From positions 3,150,001-3,182,000 of the forward strand of contig NC_014033.1 of NCBI RefSeq assembly GCF_000025925.1: DNA of 32,000 nt, written 5' to 3'. The DNA comes from Xylanibacter ruminicola 23 (lineage in GTDB: Bacteria > Bacteroidota > Bacteroidia > Bacteroidales > Bacteroidaceae). Under the pieces are notes generated by a model. That model ran no database searches, was not told the DNA's origin, and saw only the letters and a program-made list of their open reading frames with translations. Of this stretch, positions 20,667 to 32,000 are shown one piece after another (position 1 is the first letter of the stretch; each line of letters opens with the position of its first letter). The position numbers were made by a program, and so were the translations under genes.

Positions 20667-21626
20667 GTGAAACCAAAGGTAAAATTATTTATTACTGCTA
20701 TAACGCTTGCTGTTTGCTTGCCGTTGCTGGCGCAGAAGAAATACACTGGAAAGTTCGTCTTTACGCCACAGTGGACTGCCCACGCGCAGTTTGCTGGTTA
20801 TTATGTGGCCCAGGAAAAAGGCTTCTATAAGGCCGAAGGTCTGGATGTGGATATAGTACACCCATCGGTATCCGAAACGGCTATGCACCGCATTCAGGAG
20901 GCTGAGAGTCATGCCACCACGCTGCCACTCTGTTTGGCGATGGAGATTATGGACAAAGGTGTGCCTTTGGTGAACATCCTGCAAACATCGATGAACAACT
21001 CTACGGTTATCGTATCGCGCCGTGGTAAGAATCCGCTCACGCAGAAGGGTGCCCGTGTGGGTATCTGGCATGCCGGATTCGGACAGGTGGCCATCTGCAT
21101 GAGTCGCAAGGAACATCTGAATTACCAGTGGATACAGTTTACATCGAACTTCGACTTGTTTATAAAAGGTGCTATCGACGCTACGCTGGCTATGAGCTAC
21201 AACGAGTACTACCAGCTGATGCAGATGGGCTTTACATTTACCAAGGATAATGTTTATCGCTTTAGCGACCACGGTTACAATATTCAGGACGATGGTCTGT
21301 ACATGCGCCGCGACTACTACGAGACCCATAAGGCCAAGGCAGAGAAGTTTGCCCGTGCCAGCCGTAAGGGTTGGGAATGGGCCAGCGAGCATCCTGAGGA
21401 AACGCTGGATATTGTGATGAAATATGTACAGCAGAACCACGTGACAACCAATCGCACGCTGCAGCGCCTGATGCTGAAAGAGATATTGCGCCTGCAGGTG
21501 GACCGCGACTCGAAGAAACGCGAGTTCCGTTTGCGCCCCGATATGGTGAAGAAGGCCAATATGCTGATGCGCTCGAATGGGATGCTGAAGCGCGACATTA
21601 CTTACCAAGAATTATTAGATCGTTAA
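20667..21626 (+). CDS. Periplasmic substrate-binding protein, NMT1/THI5 (SsuA/TauA-like) fold, no cognate ABC permease or ATPase nearby
   Basis: 319 aa. GTG start, with no in-frame ATG that would keep the signal peptide MKPKVKLFITAITLAVCLPLLAQ. QWTAHAQFAGYYVAQEKGFYKAEGLDVDIV is typical of this SBP family. The 307-aa antisense ORF is rejected. Confidence 0.7.
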   Translation: MKPKVKLFITAITLAVCLPLLAQKKYTGKFVFTPQWTAHAQFAGYYVAQEKGFYKAEGLDVDIVHPSVSETAMHRIQEAESHATTLPLCLAMEIMDKGVPLVNILQTSMNNSTVIVSRRGKNPLTQKGARVGIWHAGFGQVAICMSRKEHLNYQWIQFTSNFDLFIKGAIDATLAMSYNEYYQLMQMGFTFTKDNVYRFSDHGYNIQDDGLYMRRDYYETHKAKAEKFARASRKGWEWASEHPEETLDIVMKYVQQNHVTTNRTLQRLMLKEILRLQVDRDSKKREFRLRPDMVKKANMLMRSNGMLKRDITYQELLDR

Positions 21627-21632
21627 TACCAC

Positions 21633-23555
21633 ATGAAGAATCCAAGAGACTATATCCGCACTTCCCTGTCACGTCGCCTTAGTATTATCATTGTACTGAT
21701 GGCCTCGATATTTTTTCTGGGATCACTTGGATTCTTGTTTGTAGAGTCGCGTAAGGCTGTGCGCGAGGAGGCGCTGAACGGTGCGGCCCAGGTGCTGGAT
21801 AACACGGTGCAGCGTGTAAACGTGCTGATGCAGCGTGTAGAGATAGCATCCGACAACTTTATGTGGTTGCCATTGCGACATCTTGATGTGGCCGACTCGA
21901 TGTTTGTGTATTCGCGTCGTATCCTGACCTGCAACCCCGATCTGAACGGTTGCTCGATAGCTTTCGAACCTAACTATTTCCCCGATAAGGGCCATTATTT
22001 CTCGGCCTATACCCTTAACGACAATGGCAAATTCGACACCACTCAGGAAGGTAATCCCTCTTATGATTATCATTATATGGATTGGTATCAGGCTCCCAAA
22101 CTGCTGGATGAGCCAGTGTGGATTGAGCCGTTTGCAGATTTCAACCCTGAGGATGTCTATGCCGAAGAGATTATTGCATCGTACTGCCGCCCAATGAAGG
22201 ATTCGAAGGGCCGCTATGTGGGCACATTCTCTACTGATATCTCGATGGAGTGGATATCGAAAACCATATCCGAAGTAAAGCCCTATCCCAACTCGTACTG
22301 CATTATGATTGGTCAGAGTGGTACTTTCTTTGTACATCCCGATACCACCAAACTGCTGCGCGAGAGCATTTTTACGCCTACACTGGAGCATCCTGATACA
22401 GCACTTACCAACCTGGGGCATGCCATGCAGCGTGGCGAAACGGGTGTGCGCAAACTGGTGTTCGAGGGCAAGGAGAGCTACGTGTTCTACAAGCCACTTG
22501 GCATTACGGGCTGGAGCGTGGCTATGGTTTGTCCTGAGAGCGATATTTTTGGCGGTTACATGCGTCTGTATAAGATAGTAATCTTTATCGTTATCGTTGG
22601 CTTGATATTGATGCGTCTGGCATTCAGTCGTATCATCAAGCGTGAGCTGAAGCCGCTGAACACGCTGGCACAGCAGGCCGAGACGATTGCATCGGGACAG
22701 TTCGACAAAACGCTGCCACGCGATAACCGTATCGACGAGATTGGTAAGCTCACGCATTCGTTCAGCGACATGCAGCACTCGTTGGTTAACTACATCAGCG
22801 AGCTGAAGCGCACCACAGCTGTTAAAGCCTCTATCGAGAGCGAGCTGAAGGTGGCCAGCGACATACAGATGGGTATGATTCCACGTGTGTTCCCACCATT
22901 CCCTGAGCGCCAGGATATCGACCTGTATGCACTGATGACTCCAGCCAAGGTGGTTGGTGGCGATCTGTACGACTACTTCCTGCAGAACGAACGCCTTTAC
23001 TTCTGTGTGGGCGACGTATCGGGTAAGGGTATTCCCGCTGCGATGTTTATGGCGATTACGCGCGACCTATTCCGCATTATTGCCCAGCAGAACCGTTCGC
23101 CATGGGAGATTGCTACGATGATGAACAACTTCCTGGTAAAGGACAACGACCAGAGCATGTTTGTAACCATGTTTATTGGTATGGTTGACCTGCCTAAGGG
23201 CCGATTGGAGTACTGTAACTGCGGTCATAATGTGCCTATACTGGATGGTAAGTTCCTGGAGATGGGCAGCACAAACCAGCCATTGGGTTTGTGGGAGTGC
23301 AAGGCCTTTGAGGGCGAGGTGATAGAGGATATTCGCAACCGACAGCTGCTGGTTTATACCGACGGACTGAATGAGGCCGAGAACGACCGTCAGGACCGTT
23401 TGGGCGACGAACGTCTGCTGGAGGCTATGCAGGGTACTGAGCAGCTTTCATCCGAGGAGGTTATACACCGTCTGCAGGTAGTGGTTAACAACCATCGTGC
23501 AGGTGCAGAACCTAACGACGACCTGACGCTGCTGTGCCTCTCGATCCGTAAATAA
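21633..23555 (+). CDS. Membrane sensor serine phosphatase: Cache-like periplasmic domain - TM - HAMP - SpoIIE/PP2C
   Basis: 640 aa. TM1 is LSIIIVLMASIFFLGSLGFLFV, followed by a ~270-aa periplasmic domain with Cache-like sequence and TM2 IVIFIVIVGLILMRLAF. A HAMP-like linker (PLNTLAQQAETIASGQFD...IDEIGKLTHSFSDMQ) follows. The PP2C motifs are GGDLYDY, CVGDVSGKGIPAAMFMA, YTDGLNEA and EPNDDLTLLCL. By eye about half the positions are identical to the catalytic domain of 2345..4408. There is a 6-nt gap after the SBP gene. Confidence 0.85.
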   Translation: MKNPRDYIRTSLSRRLSIIIVLMASIFFLGSLGFLFVESRKAVREEALNGAAQVLDNTVQRVNVLMQRVEIASDNFMWLPLRHLDVADSMFVYSRRILTCNPDLNGCSIAFEPNYFPDKGHYFSAYTLNDNGKFDTTQEGNPSYDYHYMDWYQAPKLLDEPVWIEPFADFNPEDVYAEEIIASYCRPMKDSKGRYVGTFSTDISMEWISKTISEVKPYPNSYCIMIGQSGTFFVHPDTTKLLRESIFTPTLEHPDTALTNLGHAMQRGETGVRKLVFEGKESYVFYKPLGITGWSVAMVCPESDIFGGYMRLYKIVIFIVIVGLILMRLAFSRIIKRELKPLNTLAQQAETIASGQFDKTLPRDNRIDEIGKLTHSFSDMQHSLVNYISELKRTTAVKASIESELKVASDIQMGMIPRVFPPFPERQDIDLYALMTPAKVVGGDLYDYFLQNERLYFCVGDVSGKGIPAAMFMAITRDLFRIIAQQNRSPWEIATMMNNFLVKDNDQSMFVTMFIGMVDLPKGRLEYCNCGHNVPILDGKFLEMGSTNQPLGLWECKAFEGEVIEDIRNRQLLVYTDGLNEAENDRQDRLGDERLLEAMQGTEQLSSEEVIHRLQVVVNNHRAGAEPNDDLTLLCLSIRK

Positions 23556-23601
23556 CAAATATGATATAATCCATTTTATCAACCATTTTATTATCAACTG
23601 T

Positions 23602-24912
23602 ATGAAAAAGTTTTTTATTTGCCTGATGATGGCAAGTGCGATGACTGCTCAGGCACAAATCGCACGTTTTTCAGGAAAGACAGCACTCGAAGAGATTGCT
23701 GCCGACAAGTTCTTGGCTGCTGGTAACATGACCGACTACGATCATTTGCCACGTACATCTCTAACACCTGCCCCTAAGGGCTACGAGCCTTACTATCTGT
23801 CGCACTATGGTCGCCATGGTGCCCGCTATCTGCTTGAGGAGAACGATTATGCCATGCCTGTACAGACGTTGCGCAAGGCCAAGTATGCCGGTAAGCTTAC
23901 GCCGCTGGGCGATAAGGTGCTGGCTAAGCTCGACTCGATGCAGAAGACTACTAAGGACCGACTGGGCGACCTGACAGCTACTGGTCAGCGTCAGCACCAT
24001 GGCATCGCTAAGCGCATGGCGCAGAACTTCCCTGAGATTTTCAAGAAACCTAATCTGCCTATCCACTCGGTTTCTACCACCTCTATCCGTGCCATTATCT
24101 CTATGATGGCTGAGTGTGAGGAGTTGCAGGCTGCTAATCCATCGGCCCGTATCTTTAATGATGCCAGCAAGGCCGATATGCACTATATGAACTACTCGCC
24201 ATCACGCCAGGAGCGCGGCATGGGTATGCCACAGATGAACGTGATGCGTGCCATGCAGAAGCAGCAGGCCATGAGCGACAGTCTGAAGCACCCTGAGCGC
24301 CTGATGCAGCAGCTGTTTAACGATCAGCACTGGGTGTATCTGAATGTAACCACAGGTTCGCTGATGAGCAAGATAGCCGATGTGGCGCTGAACATGCAGA
24401 GTCATGATGGAGATGCCACCCTGTTGGAACTGTTTACGCCAGAGGAACTGCGCGACCTGTGGCGCAGCAACAACTTGTACTGGTATCTGTTGTACAGTAA
24501 TGCTCCACAAACAGGCGGTAAGATGCAGTGGAACCAGAAGAACCTGCTGAAGAACATTATTGAGACTGCCGATACCGTTACCCAGACACAGGTATCGCTG
24601 CGTTTTGGTCATGATACCGTTGTGCTGCCCCTGCTGTGTATGCTGGATCTGGATGGATCGGCTGTACAGGTTGATAACCTCGATGAGCTCGAGAACTCGT
24701 TCCGCACCTACTACCTCATCCCCACAGGCAGTAACGTTCAGTTCGTCTTCTATCGCCCCAAGAAAGGCAAAACAGGCGATATCCTAGTAAAGGTACTGTT
24801 TAACGAGCGCGAGGCCCACATGCCGCTTAAAACCGACACCTGGCCCTATTACAAGTGGCAGGATGTTCGCGAGTACTACTTAGCTAAGCTGGCCGAGCAG
24901 GAGAAGAAATAA
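23602..24912 (+). CDS. Secreted histidine acid phosphatase (branch-2 histidine phosphatase; phytase/Minpp-like)
   Basis: 436 aa with signal peptide MKKFFICLMMASAMTAQAQ. It has the catalytic RHGxRx motif (SHYGRHGARYL) and a downstream HD motif (LRFGHDTVV). Confidence 0.75.
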   Translation: MKKFFICLMMASAMTAQAQIARFSGKTALEEIAADKFLAAGNMTDYDHLPRTSLTPAPKGYEPYYLSHYGRHGARYLLEENDYAMPVQTLRKAKYAGKLTPLGDKVLAKLDSMQKTTKDRLGDLTATGQRQHHGIAKRMAQNFPEIFKKPNLPIHSVSTTSIRAIISMMAECEELQAANPSARIFNDASKADMHYMNYSPSRQERGMGMPQMNVMRAMQKQQAMSDSLKHPERLMQQLFNDQHWVYLNVTTGSLMSKIADVALNMQSHDGDATLLELFTPEELRDLWRSNNLYWYLLYSNAPQTGGKMQWNQKNLLKNIIETADTVTQTQVSLRFGHDTVVLPLLCMLDLDGSAVQVDNLDELENSFRTYYLIPTGSNVQFVFYRPKKGKTGDILVKVLFNEREAHMPLKTDTWPYYKWQDVREYYLAKLAEQEKK

Positions 24913-28173: not shown

Positions 28174-28668
28174 TTATTCGTATAAGGCGGGCGTATCCGT
28201 GGCACTTACCTTAGTGGTGTCGGCCATATTCTCGGCCTGCATAGTGCCGAGGGTGTTAACGGAGTCGGCCTGATGCTGCTGGTGGAACTTAGCATATGCA
28301 TCCTTCGGGTCGTCCCATCCGCGGTCCCAAGGGGCCTGTGCGGCGTTACCCAGTGTAAGGATGATGGCTACCACGGCTGCAGCACGGAACAGCGGCATGA
28401 GGCGTGTGGTAAGAGTTACCATCTTGGCCTTTGGCGCTTCGGTGTTCTCGCCTACCATTTCGAGTATTCGGGCATCAAAGTCATCGCCCAGTTCAGGCTT
28501 CTCCTGCTCGAGAGTAAACAGCGCTTTGTACTGCATCAGACTGGCTGGTACATCCTCCTGACTGAAGAATGTGCGCAGAATTGACTCTTCCTGTAGTGTG
28601 GTTTCACACTGCCAGTAGCGCTCCAGTAACTGTTCGATATACTTATAATCCATATTTCTCGGTTTCAA
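28174..28668 (-). CDS. Small single-pass membrane protein downstream of ECF sigma (putative anti-sigma factor)
   Basis: 164 aa. The N-terminal YIEQLLERYWQCETTLQEESILRTFF resembles short proteins I recall following ECF sigma genes in Bacteroidales. It has one TM segment (LMPLFRAAAVVAIILTLGNAA). It overlaps the sigma gene by 26 nt, or by 11 nt if the start is the ATG at 28653. Confidence 0.6.
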   Translation of the reverse strand: MKPRNMDYKYIEQLLERYWQCETTLQEESILRTFFSQEDVPASLMQYKALFTLEQEKPELGDDFDARILEMVGENTEAPKAKMVTLTTRLMPLFRAAAVVAIILTLGNAAQAPWDRGWDDPKDAYAKFHQQHQADSVNTLGTMQAENMADTTKVSATDTPALYE

Positions 28669-29161
28669 TATATTTTTGTCGGATGGCTTGGCGAGCGCGG
28701 AAGATGTTTACCTTTACCTGCTCTTCGCTGACAGCCATAATCGACGCTATTTCTTTATAACTCTTGCCTTCGAATTCGCGCAACTGCATAGCGCTTCGCT
28801 GTTTCTCAGGCAGTTCATTAATAAGTTGGCGTATCAGCTCGATGCGATCGCGCTGCATAGCCTGCTCTTCAGGGTTCGAGGCGTAGCTCTGGTCGGCTTT
28901 GTCGTGGTCGCCTTCTTCCAGACTCTGGTTCTGGTTTTCCAAGTGTCGCATTCTGTCGAGTGCCAGGTTGCGGCAGATGGTAAGGCAAAAGGCTTCAATC
29001 GATTCGATGTCGTCCCATGCCTCGCGGCGATTCCACACCTTTATCATCGTGTCCTGTACTACATCCTCTGCCTCTGCAGGGTTGAGGGTGATGCGGAGGG
29101 CAAGCCTGTAGAGCTCGTTCTTCAGCGGCAAGATGTCAGTTTTAAAACTTATCTTTTTCAT
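28643..29161 (-). CDS. ECF-type RNA polymerase sigma-70 family factor
   Basis: 172 aa. It has region 2 (AEDVVQDTMIKVWNR) and a region 4 HTH (QRSAMQLREFEGKSYKEIASIMAVSEEQVKVNIFRARQAIR). Confidence 0.85.
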   Translation of the reverse strand: MKKISFKTDILPLKNELYRLALRITLNPAEAEDVVQDTMIKVWNRREAWDDIESIEAFCLTICRNLALDRMRHLENQNQSLEEGDHDKADQSYASNPEEQAMQRDRIELIRQLINELPEKQRSAMQLREFEGKSYKEIASIMAVSEEQVKVNIFRARQAIRQKYIETEKYGL

Positions 29162-30016: not shown

Positions 30017-31066
30017 TTACTGCTTTTGTCCGATAGCCTTGTATTGGCGTATCATGGCATCGGCCAGTATAGCGTTACTCTCGTTGGCACCGTACAGGGT
30101 GTCGTAAATCATCTTCACATCATCGCGACCGCCGCCATGCTTCAAGGCGTAAACCACGCACAGGTTCTGCAGACCAACCGACTCAGACAGGATATCAAGG
30201 TCGGTAACAGCCAACTGCGACAGGGCCAGCTGATAGGCTGTGTCGCTCAAATCGTCGACCATAGCTTGTACATCGCCTAACGATTCCATGCCAAAATGCT
30301 CCAGAACGCGCAGGAAAGGCATCAGCGAGGCGGGGAACAGCTCGGCCTGGTTAACAGCAGCAATACGCTGGTTAAGACGCTCGAATGGGTGCAATTCAAG
30401 ATAGCTGCGGAACGAGTCGGTAGAGAGTGTTACCTCGCTTAGGTTGCCTGATTTTACCAGCGTTTGTATCTGTCGGCGGTATTCGGTCATAGTGGTGCGC
30501 AGACGGCTGAACTCATCGTCGGCCAACTCTAACATACCGGCCAGGCGACTGAACTGTCGGCGATACTGTGGGGGCAGTTTAACGGCACCCTTGTAGCCGA
30601 TGTCGTGCTCGATGGCCGACCACGTGTGCTGCAGTGCTGTACGTATCTGTATCTCGAAGGGAATGCTACCCTCGTGCAGCTGGCAGATGTAGTGCAGCGA
30701 GTTATAGCCAAAGCTGTTGAAATCGTGCAGCTTGCGCTTATCAACAGAGTTGCTCCAGTCGATATCGAACAACTGACTGACAATGGCTGCTACCTTATCC
30801 ACATCATCGGTATAGAAGGTAACAATGCGCAGGCCAATCAGGTCGGTAATGTCGCTTAGCGAGTGATATTTCTCGCCTTTGCGCTCTAACTTACCAGCCA
30901 ACGACTCAACACCCTTGATGCGGTGCTCGATGCTGTTAAGTTCGATGCCCTGCTGCTGCATGGTGGTCTGTAACAGCTCGAAAACCTTGTTGTCAAGCTG
31001 TATCAGTTGTGGCCGCAGTTCGATGAACTCCTGCAGCAACGCTTCGCAATGTGGCGACAGGCGCAT
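30017..31066 (-). CDS. RelA/SpoT-domain nucleotide pyrophosphokinase (small alarmone synthetase-like) with ~150-aa C-terminal extension; no hydrolase domain
   Basis: 349 aa. All synthetase motifs are present: HRIKGVESLAGKLERKG, DLIGLRIV, GYNSLHY and FEIQIRTALQHTWSAIEHDIGYK. Its ATG (31064-31066) overlaps the STAS stop (31066-31068) by 1 nt. Confidence 0.85.
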   Translation of the reverse strand: MRLSPHCEALLQEFIELRPQLIQLDNKVFELLQTTMQQQGIELNSIEHRIKGVESLAGKLERKGEKYHSLSDITDLIGLRIVTFYTDDVDKVAAIVSQLFDIDWSNSVDKRKLHDFNSFGYNSLHYICQLHEGSIPFEIQIRTALQHTWSAIEHDIGYKGAVKLPPQYRRQFSRLAGMLELADDEFSRLRTTMTEYRRQIQTLVKSGNLSEVTLSTDSFRSYLELHPFERLNQRIAAVNQAELFPASLMPFLRVLEHFGMESLGDVQAMVDDLSDTAYQLALSQLAVTDLDILSESVGLQNLCVVYALKHGGGRDDVKMIYDTLYGANESNAILADAMIRQYKAIGQKQ

Positions 31067-31368
31067 TAGATAAACTCAAAAAGATTAATAAAACCAGTCA
31101 TGGCAAACACCTGGCGCAGATCTTCGTTCATGTTGCGCAGATAAACATGGCTGCCTTTGGGCTTTGCGGCCTTGAGCAGACCAAGGAACAGGCGCAGACC
31201 ACTTGATGAGATATACTCGAGTGCTGTGCAATCAAGAATGATATCGTGACCAGAGCATTCGTAAAGTGGAGCCATGCTCTTTTCAACCTCTGCTGATGCA
31301 GCCGTATCCAAACGACCTTCGAAGTACATCACGAAATTCTTCTCTTCTTCTTTGAATGTTGTTTTCAT
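31066..31368 (-). CDS. STAS-domain anti-sigma-factor antagonist (SpoIIAA/RsbV-like)
   Basis: 100 aa. It has the conserved phosphorylatable-serine motif in LEYISSSGLRLFLGLL and the typical C-terminal VFAMTGFINLFEF. Confidence 0.85.
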   Translation of the reverse strand: MKTTFKEEEKNFVMYFEGRLDTAASAEVEKSMAPLYECSGHDIILDCTALEYISSSGLRLFLGLLKAAKPKGSHVYLRNMNEDLRQVFAMTGFINLFEFI

Positions 31369-31374
31369 AACTAT

Positions 31375-31794
31375 TTATTTTTTAGTGATAATTTTGCTGA
31401 GTGTGAGTAGATTCTTATTATCTACACGCTCGTAGTTAATGGTATCCATTATTTGTCGTATCAGGTGAATGCCTAATCCGCCGATACTACGCTGTTCGGC
31501 TGAAAGCGTAGTATCGACCTCGGCTTTGACCGTTGGGTCGAAGGGGGTACCGCTGTCGCTGATGACAAACTTAAGATGCTCATCGTTTATCTGGGCATCG
31601 ATATCCACATCGCCCTTACCATTGGGATAGGCATAGTTCATGACGTTAACCACAGCCTCTTCGATGGCCAGGTTAATCTTCATCGTTGTGCTCATGTCGA
31701 GGCCTGCAGTCTCGCACACCTCATCTACAAATGCATTGAGCTGGGGCACTTCCTGCACATCGTTAGGCAGTGTAAGATGATTTTGGTAACGCAC
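31375..31794 (-). CDS. RsbW/SpoIIAB-like serine-protein kinase (HATPase_c anti-sigma regulatory factor)
   Basis: 139 aa with a GTG start; no in-frame ATG would keep the N-terminal helix. It has the N-box IEEAVVNVMNYAY and G-boxes ISDSGTPFDP and IGGLGIHLIRQIMD. There is a 6-nt gap to the STAS gene. Confidence 0.8.
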   Translation of the reverse strand: MRYQNHLTLPNDVQEVPQLNAFVDEVCETAGLDMSTTMKINLAIEEAVVNVMNYAYPNGKGDVDIDAQINDEHLKFVISDSGTPFDPTVKAEVDTTLSAEQRSIGGLGIHLIRQIMDTINYERVDNKNLLTLSKIITKK

Positions 31795-31866
31795 GTCGAA
31801 TTGTTATTTAGTGTATTGAAGTACGACTTGTATCATCTGATAGATGATGGCATGAGAAGAAACTGC

Positions 31867-32000
31867 CTACTCAAGATAGGTATATCCGTAGAGTCCTGAG
31901 CGGTAGTTAGAGAGGAATTCCTTACCCTCGTCCAAACTGATCTTGCCCTGCTTTACGCTCTTGGCAACCCAAACCTCCAGCTGGCGAACCAGCTTCTTGG
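31867..32000 (-). CDS. 3' end of an unidentified CDS continuing beyond the window
   Basis: The minus-strand frame is open from 32000 down to TAG (plus-strand cta at 31867-31869). It encodes ...KKLVRQLEVWVAKSVKQGKISLDEGKEFLSNYRSGLYGYTYLE*. It is too short to be in the ORF track and I cannot assign a family. Confidence 0.35.
   Translation of the reverse strand, partial: KKLVRQLEVWVAKSVKQGKISLDEGKEFLSNYRSGLYGYTYLE

Follow-up and report, generated by a model that had tools for sequence, protein, structure and literature searches.

What does a partner switch control when the gene after it encodes a RelA/SpoT-type enzyme instead of a sigma factor? This question is raised by a locus of Xylanibacter ruminicola 23, located in a 32,000-nucleotide stretch of its genome (NC_014033.1, positions 3,150,001 to 3,182,000; hereafter the window), where genes for an RsbW-like kinase, a STAS protein and a synthetase of the RelA/SpoT family are packed together on the minus strand. 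In the SpoIIAA/AB-sigmaF and RsbV/W-sigmaB operons, the gene following the kinase/STAS pair encodes the sigma factor that is sequestered by the kinase. To our knowledge, the Bacteroidota largely lack sigma factors of the sigmaB/sigmaF type. Based on comparative sequence analysis, we propose that the three genes probably belong to a conserved signaling module, in which a partner-switching phosphorylation switch would control a small alarmone synthetase (SAS) and the phospho-state of the STAS protein would gate synthesis.

Organization of the locus

The first of the three genes (31375..31794, minus strand) starts with GTG and encodes a serine kinase domain of 139 residues. A gap of six nucleotides separates its stop codon from the start of the second gene (31066..31368, minus strand), which encodes a single-domain STAS protein of 100 residues, resembling the anti-sigma-factor antagonists RsbV and SpoIIAA. 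The third open reading frame (ORF; 30017-31066, minus strand) encodes the synthetase of 349 residues, the ATG of which has a single base, at position 31066, in common with the stop codon of STAS, in the sequence TAATG. The synthetase is composed of a synthetase (SYNTH) domain with a long helix after it (residues 1-204; 30455..31066, minus strand) and a mostly α-helical C-terminal domain (residues 205-349; 30017..30454, minus strand), as delineated by matches to PF04607 and RelQ/RelP, an AlphaFold2 model and family conservation. At the amino-acid level, the synthetase region is 99% identical to that of X. ruminicola strain D31d. Promoter and terminator scans detected no terminator-like site between the kinase, STAS, SAS and argB genes, and the only minus-strand Bacteroidetes -7 motif sits inside the kinase ORF, at a frequency equal to the chance level.

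The kinase covers the full profile of HATPase_c_2 (PF13581), with an E-value of 7e-28. Its sole solved homolog at E<1e-3 is RsbW (PDB 6m36_A), against which the N-box, G1 and G2 motifs are aligned, with the E/N (EEAVVN), DxG (DSG) and GGLG motifs all retained. The STAS protein matches PF01740 with an E-value of 1e-17, and the anti-sigma-factor antagonist family TIGR00377 with 66.5 bits against a cutoff of 53.45; its best matches in the PDB are a SpoIIAA-like protein and RsbV. The motif ISSSGLR occupies residues 53-59, and its S55 is aligned to the serine that accepts the phosphate in RsbV and SpoIIAA. Moreover, the SS-x-GLR motif, including the acceptor serine, is invariant in 70 of the 70 synthetase-linked STAS proteins.

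Residues 48-160 of the synthetase match RelA_SpoT (PF04607) with an E-value of 1e-22, which is the sole Pfam match; no HD, TGS or ACT domain was detected by the Pfam scan of the 349 residues. The catalytic motifs comprise R48-x-K50, S54 and K58; D74-x-x-G77-x-R79; G119-Y-x-S-x-H124; and E137-IQIRT, QHxW, EH and YK158. In an alignment of 25 family members of 29-86% identity, almost none of these motif residues varies. RelQ/RelP are the best match to the N-terminal 200 residues in both sequence and fold: the SAS family profile matches RelQ/RelP with an E-value of 5e-24 and CapRel, the only name of a toxic SAS (toxSAS) recognized among its PDB matches, with 3e-5, and the fold search returned RelQ/RelP with a TM-score of ~0.7, normalized to the target. 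The synthetase is no ortholog of RelQ/RelP, since it scores 63 bits against the YjbM equivalog NF053588, which has a cutoff of 320. By its sequence, the 349-residue protein is a member of the synthetase-only SAS class within the superfamily of RelA/SpoT homologs (RSH), with predicted synthetase activity. The family is large, comprising 1,096 clusters at 50% identity with E <1e-30.

The C-terminal domain, modeled alone by AlphaFold2, has a pLDDT of 94.6 and a pTM of 0.89. It has no Pfam match, and a Foldseek search gave no structural match, with best E-values of 1.6 against the PDB and 1.1 against BFVD. CapRel was not among the fold-search matches of this domain, none of which reached E<1. A first-pass annotation, made from the letters of the window alone, had already read the three minus-strand ORFs at these coordinates, the six-nucleotide gap, the shared base of TAATG, the RsbW-like kinase and STAS pair, the four synthetase motifs and the missing HD, TGS and ACT regions; all of these were recovered here, and the profile and PDB matches agree on the identity of the pair. 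Its alternative of a CapRel-like enzyme, drawn from the order of a synthetase domain and a C-terminal extension, is weakened by the profile E-value of 3e-5 and by a C-terminal fold that has no CapRel match.

Conservation of the linkage

The locus set was obtained by a scan with the family alignment of one genome per species of GTDB, from which the 80 closest loci were kept, with 35-99% identity to the query. Neighboring ORFs were called mechanically and searched with the STAS and kinase sequences of the window and with the PP2C and sensor regions of locus L001 (L-numbers are labels of the retrieved loci). Linkage was counted within 6 kb of the SAS gene.

A STAS gene, a kinase gene or both are found beside the synthetase in 66 of the 80 loci. 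STAS is linked in 65 of them, the kinase domain in 56 and a PP2C domain in 37, whereas PP2C and kinase are fused in one protein in 37 loci. All matches to STAS and the kinase lie on the same strand as SAS (130 of 130). The STAS gene sits directly upstream of SAS in 38 loci, at a distance of -26 to +54 nt (median ~5), compared to six loci in which a kinase-domain gene takes this position. Kinase-only arrangements occur in at least 20 loci of other species. Tandem STAS genes upstream of SAS, or one STAS gene on each side, were also seen in both L022 and L036 (5359-5982), in L035 (5243-5980), and in L086 and L087, which suggests branched or competing STAS inputs.

The contigs with linked loci are classified as Bacteroidota, Bacillota or a spirochaete, and the loci have at least four gene orders. 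Prevotella and Paludibacteraceae have the order [sensor-PP2C-kinase][STAS][SAS]. In L047, L056, L063 and L065, the order is [sensor-PP2C-kinase][SAS][SAH]...[STAS], where SAH denotes a small alarmone hydrolase; L034, L039 and L068 have [SAS][SAH]...[sensor-PP2C-kinase][STAS], and contigs labeled Lachnospiraceae, Ruminococcus and Ructibacterium have [SAS][SAH]...[STAS][PP2C-kinase]. As the linkage is kept through such rearrangement, we argue for a shared function. The divergent Bacillota-type loci possess a distinct architecture, with a PP2C-kinase of 935-959 residues after STAS, which supports a real spread across phyla. On the chromosome, Xylanibacter and Prevotella species keep the gene order speA-(psd)-module-argB-ribF.

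As a control, 80 loci (808 kb) of distant relatives on IMG/VR contigs were searched; genes for STAS, kinase, PP2C and SAH are absent from all of them. The same holds for four distant chromosomal family members of 30-37% identity. A subclade within a larger SAS family is therefore set apart by its association with a partner switch. One partner-switch-free relative of 37% identity, P0142 (loci L093 and L094), lies directly after ilvB/ilvN-like genes for acetolactate synthase subunits, a hint of a connection with branched-chain amino-acid metabolism in this lineage. Altogether, the first-pass reading of a partner-switching pair coupled to a RelA/SpoT synthetase in place of a sigma factor holds in 66 of 80 loci, against none of the 80 control loci, and its synteny extends beyond this genome, on one strand and in several gene orders.

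Neither of the other local candidates accompanies the synthetase in this way. The genes argB and speA are linked to SAS in the four nearest genomes only; a pair of an extracytoplasmic function (ECF) sigma factor and its putative anti-sigma factor is linked in the four nearest genomes, with the ECF sigma factor present in two further loci. No sigma factor is conserved across the 80 SAS loci. As their linkage is restricted to the nearest genomes, neither the ECF sigma factor nor argB is the conserved output, and both were ruled out as the true partner. In the window, the ECF sigma gene (28643-29161, minus strand) overlaps by 26 nt an ORF of 164 residues (28174-28668, minus strand) that has no Pfam match and contains a hydrophobic segment; this ORF probably encodes the anti-sigma factor of the ECF sigma factor.

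Alarmone hydrolase neighbors and fusions

A protein of the HD_4 family (PF13328), of ~170-220 residues, is encoded on the same strand as SAS in 40 of the 80 loci, and its start usually falls -7 to +48 nt from the SAS stop codon. This protein is a small alarmone hydrolase. The closest solved relatives of the linked SAH are Lmo0812, the hydrolase domains of Rel/SpoT and Mesh1, whereas Aph1 (PDB 7smg), a ppApp-specific hydrolase (PMC10083569), is more distant. In addition, P0161 is a natural fusion of SAS to an HD_4 hydrolase in 528 residues, with HD_4 at the C-terminus and thus an inverted order of synthetase and hydrolase. The hydrolase neighbors and this fusion speak for a predicted SAS product that is a hydrolyzable nucleotide alarmone, in the simplest case (p)ppGpp.

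The SAH gene after SAS was seen in L034, L039, L047, L054, L056-L060, L062-L065, L068 and L075-L087. In several loci, such as L034 and L039, it is followed by a phosphotransferase-like gene of the APH family (PF01636); in L058-L060 and L075, the SAH match lies inside an ORF of ~470-505 residues that may represent an SAH-APH fusion. An adjacent hydrolase is absent from the window and, among its closest relatives, from most (L010-L031, with the exception of L021); there is also no small alarmone hydrolase gene anywhere in the window.

Deletion of the sensor-phosphatase

In L001, L008 and L011-L013, the synthetases of which are identical or 86-93% identical to that of the window, the gene upstream of STAS encodes a fused protein of 778-811 residues. 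It has the domain order of dCache_1/MCP-like PDC, HAMP, SpoIIE (PP2C) and HATPase_c_2, and its gene is preceded by speA and psd. Two hydrophobic transmembrane (TM) helices flank the dCache region, which places this domain in the periplasm. By contrast, in the window, L004-L007, L009 and the isolate D31d (L010), speA is followed directly by the 139-residue kinase ORF.

Between them, the window allele carries a scar of 73 nt (31795..31867, minus strand), a degenerate remainder of the PP2C (SpoIIE) coding region at its 3' end. The scar was read by translation against the proteins of L001 and L008 and by DNA alignment with the intact alleles of L008 and L013. It aligns with the final PP2C codons of the intact allele, in frame with the kinase, and shows an internal deletion of 51 nt and a change of CAA to the stop codon TAA. 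Gene tables of L004-L009, set against those of L001 and L008, and blastn breakpoints place the 3' end of speA (arginine decarboxylase; 31868..32000, minus strand) straight against the scar, with psd and ~640 codons of the sensor-phosphatase missing between the two. From this junction and the scar alignment, it follows that a deletion of ~3 kb took psd and the ~640 sensor and phosphatase codons. Hence, the kinase ORF is the surviving C-terminal end of an ancestral dCache-HAMP-PP2C-kinase sensor: the first-pass annotation was right about a HATPase-type kinase, but what it took for a primary stand-alone gene is the remnant of a larger fusion. The loss of psd, which encodes phosphatidylserine decarboxylase, implies that another copy exists elsewhere or that the lipid pathway is altered. 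The locus is structurally polymorphic: L008, with an identical synthetase protein, keeps psd and the 778-residue gene, and the deletion is present in five metagenome contigs and D31d.

Selection was assessed by comparing the window with L010, both of which are deletion-bearing strains. The kinase has eight synonymous and two non-synonymous changes, the STAS protein seven and none, and SAS 39 and four, corresponding to ratios of non-synonymous to synonymous rates (dN/dS) of 0.07, 0 and 0.03, respectively. All three genes are intact and under purifying selection after the deletion, with no decay.

A second sensor of this type is encoded 6.5 kb from the module on the opposite strand (21633..23555, plus strand). 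This kinase-less membrane protein of 640 residues has the Pfam domains dCache, HAMP and SpoIIE (PP2C), with two TM helices flanking the dCache domain, and shares 32% identity with the intact fused sensor over the full length. It is also 36-37% identical to kinase-less sensor-PP2C proteins encoded beside STAS in L053, L058 and L060, which makes it a candidate phosphatase acting in trans on STAS. Immediately upstream is a gene for an NMT1/THI5-like protein of the periplasmic-binding type (20667-21626, plus strand), and a histidine phosphatase branch-2 gene (23602-24912, plus strand) follows; the genes at 20667-24912 may form a separate sensing unit. The segment nearby varies between strains, with a Peptidase_S58 gene present in the window and L005, but not in L004.

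Proposed mechanism and alternatives

In the proposed mechanism, the ancestral membrane protein, consisting of a periplasmic dCache, HAMP, PP2C and an RsbW-like kinase, would set the phosphorylation of STAS at S55. One phospho-form of STAS would then bind SAS and switch alarmone synthesis on or off, the product being most likely (p)ppGpp. An extracytoplasmic signal could thereby be converted into a nucleotide second-messenger response that bypasses ribosome-based starvation sensing, and in many species a small alarmone hydrolase following the synthetase would complete the circuit. An envelope or nutrient signal had been suggested by the first-pass annotation, an idea now backed by the finding that the kinase was ancestrally fused to a periplasmic dCache-HAMP-PP2C sensor with two TM helices. 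STAS is preferred as the proximal regulator because it is the most frequent neighbor of SAS (65 loci, compared to 56 for the kinase) and by far the one most often adjacent or overlapping, and because STAS carries the output under the fused PP2C-kinases SypE and HsbR. In the window strain, the kinase would be unopposed by its cognate phosphatase, and the phosphorylated form of STAS would tend to persist unless the paralogous sensor-PP2C fills this role; owing to the deletion, dephosphorylation would depend on a phosphatase encoded elsewhere. The physical interaction of STAS and SAS, its sign, the nucleotide product and the ligand are elements of this scheme that we infer. At about even chances, the whole would represent a self-contained, ribosome-independent alarmone circuit of gut and rumen anaerobes, made up of dCache sensor, phospho-switch, synthetase and often hydrolase, through which an extracellular cue directly sets the level of a (p)ppGpp-type alarmone.

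Several observations weigh against this proposal. A partner-switch gene is missing from the retrieved DNA of 14 of the 80 loci, some of these 14 being on short contigs, and more distant family members with the same synthetase and C-terminal domain also have no partner switch. Since the C-terminal domain is common to such members, it is a family feature, and no dedicated STAS-docking domain. Linkage proves functional association; direct regulatory contact, or its direction, is beyond its reach. Many of the loci outside Bacteroidota are metagenome-assembled genomes (MAGs), and some of their taxon labels (at 44-49% identity) could reflect mis-binning. The substrate, be it GDP/GTP, ATP or tRNA, cannot be read from the synthetase sequence, and the toxSAS literature provides no transferable sequence discriminator for the product nucleotide. 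Furthermore, the window allele has neither a cognate phosphatase nor an adjacent hydrolase, so that its switch may be locked in one state; a replacement of the phosphatase by the paralog at 21633-23555 is plausible, as a guess from paralogy.

In the textbook logic of RsbW/RsbV and SpoIIAB/SpoIIAA, the kinase itself would bind and inhibit SAS, or tether it to the membrane, and unphosphorylated STAS, formed once the sensor switches on the PP2C, would compete for the kinase and thereby free the active enzyme. RsbW is indeed the best structural homolog of the kinase, a kinase-domain gene ends immediately before the SAS start in six loci, and the two domains are joined in one natural HATPase_c_2::SAS fusion of 521 residues (P0121; L095 6001-7566). 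We give this fusion little weight, however, as it was seen once, on a single MAG contig that has no STAS gene near it. The kinase is linked to SAS less often than STAS and is rarely next to it; in 37 loci it forms the tail of a large membrane sensor-phosphatase, as in SypE and HsbR, where it modifies STAS only. Direct control of SAS by the kinase is accordingly judged unlikely. It is most improbable that the switch acts on another target elsewhere while SAS is just co-expressed, or that the window allele is a remnant heading to decay. The lack of a terminator-like site from the kinase to argB means that simple co-expression would explain the local layout, the sensor-phosphatase has been lost from the window allele, and non-canonical STAS proteins of unknown target are common (PMC8256260). 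Nevertheless, the association in 66 of 80 species from several phyla, on one strand and mostly with translational coupling, is hard to explain without a shared function, and a sigma factor is conserved in none of these loci. Continued purifying selection on kinase, STAS and SAS in the deletion strains also argues against decay, as does the frequent occurrence elsewhere of kinase-only arrangements.

A third explanation takes SAS as a growth-arresting toxSAS producing (pp)pApp or modifying tRNA by pyrophosphorylation, silenced by the STAS/kinase pair with SAH as the antidote, in a toxin-antitoxin or phage-defense device. The layout of an overlapping small gene plus SAS resembles toxSAS operons, and SAS with SAH resembles FaRel/ATfaRel (PMC7229694); CapRel likewise combines a synthetase with a C-terminal regulatory domain (PMC9712102). 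In addition, the synthetase matches the PADLOC candidate PDC-S33 (E 3.5e-15) and phrog_9640 of unknown function (E 5e-61), and 80 distant relatives of 27-48% identity lie on prophage or viral contigs. Yet the linked subclade occupies one fixed chromosomal position among the housekeeping genes speA, psd, argB and ribF, and the module is under strong purifying selection, whereas the prophage relatives do not exceed 48% identity and lack partner-switch and SAH neighbors. The SAS profile is far nearer to RelQ/RelP than to CapRel, the C-terminal domain is unlike that of CapRel, PADLOC gives no match for STAS or the kinase, and the window lineage keeps an intact SAS without an adjacent hydrolase. 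We thus regard a toxic SAS as very unlikely. An anti-phage defense system was rejected, as the only PADLOC match is that of the synthetase domain to PDC-S33 and the viral relatives are distant and devoid of a partner switch; the broader family of SAS with this C-terminal domain may include phage-associated members with another role. Compared to these alternatives, control of SAS through the phospho-state of STAS accords with the frequency and position of the STAS gene.

Novelty and implications

A search of open-access full text found no paper that joins STAS proteins or partner switching with RelA/SpoT enzymes, although a description elsewhere is possible; the statement of the first-pass annotation that a RelA/SpoT output has no described precedent is in line with this search. 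The main text of the principal toxSAS neighborhood study contains neither STAS nor anti-sigma proteins, and alarmones are not listed among the outputs in the STAS review. Partner switches with enzyme outputs and small alarmone synthetases are both already known, so that joining them is new, but is not a new category. The genetic tie of the switch to an alarmone synthetase in dozens of gut-anaerobe species suggests an undescribed route from external signals to alarmones.

If true, the module would represent the first case of a partner switch with a RelA/SpoT enzyme at its output, extending the non-sigma outputs of partner switching to the stringent-response machinery and giving the stringent response a new class of input. 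Post-translational regulation of SAS enzymes is largely obscure outside the allostery of RelQ, for which a conserved upstream phospho-switch offers a testable answer. It also bears on why bacteria, here a large group of Bacteroidales and gut Bacillota, keep extra RSH enzymes. In Bacteroidota, such a module would connect an extracellular ligand to global growth control, with relevance to nutrient sensing and persistence in rumen and gut. Moreover, the intact and sensor-deleted alleles are both natural, the latter in a cultured X. ruminicola strain, which provides a natural genetic comparison.

Comparison with known systems

The module shares with RsbU-RsbV-RsbW-sigmaB and SpoIIE-SpoIIAA-SpoIIAB-sigmaF a PP2C phosphatase, a single-domain STAS protein with a phospho-serine and a HATPase_c_2 kinase. 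It differs from these Bacillus switches in its conserved fourth gene, which encodes a RelA/SpoT synthetase and no sigma factor. In addition, the ancestral form joins the phosphatase and kinase to a membrane dCache-HAMP sensor in one protein, and the phosphatase is deleted in the window.

RelQ and RelP, the SAS1 and SAS2 of Firmicutes, are likewise synthetase-only RSH enzymes with the same catalytic motifs and fold. They are controlled transcriptionally and allosterically, whereas the SAS of the window has an extra C-terminal domain of ~145 residues and a partner-switch neighborhood. The toxSAS systems, including FaRel with its hydrolase ATfaRel and CapRel, resemble the present locus in the tight overlapping operon, the SAH that sometimes follows and the order of synthetase and C-terminal domain (PMC7229694, PMC9712102). 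However, the partner genes here encode signaling proteins and not antitoxins, the small upstream gene being a bona fide STAS gene, and the linked subclade lies outside a mobile-element or defense context, in core-chromosome synteny.

The closest parallels are found among partner switches with a fused phosphatase and kinase. In the HptB-HsbR-HsbA-HsbD pathway of Pseudomonas aeruginosa, HsbR is a fused PP2C-kinase, and the outputs of the STAS protein HsbA include the diguanylate cyclase HsbD. In the SypE-SypA system of Vibrio fischeri, a protein with fused PP2C and RsbW-like kinase domains targets a STAS protein, and this STAS protein is the output (PMC8256260). PP2C and HATPase_c_2 are similarly present in one polypeptide near the STAS gene in the orthologous loci, though not in the window, owing to the deletion. 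Compared to SypE and HsbR, the input is a periplasmic dCache_1/PDC domain with HAMP and two TM helices, and there is no receiver (REC) domain. The presumed target also differs, as it would be an alarmone synthetase instead of a cyclic di-GMP cyclase or a biofilm factor of unknown nature, and its gene is translationally coupled to the STAS gene. A recent case of a PP2C/STAS phospho-switch with an enzyme output in place of a sigma factor is the HenR-STAS-glycosyltransferase module of Anabaena (PMC13555669), which differs in output enzyme class, phylum and input domain from the present module, itself known from comparative genomics alone.

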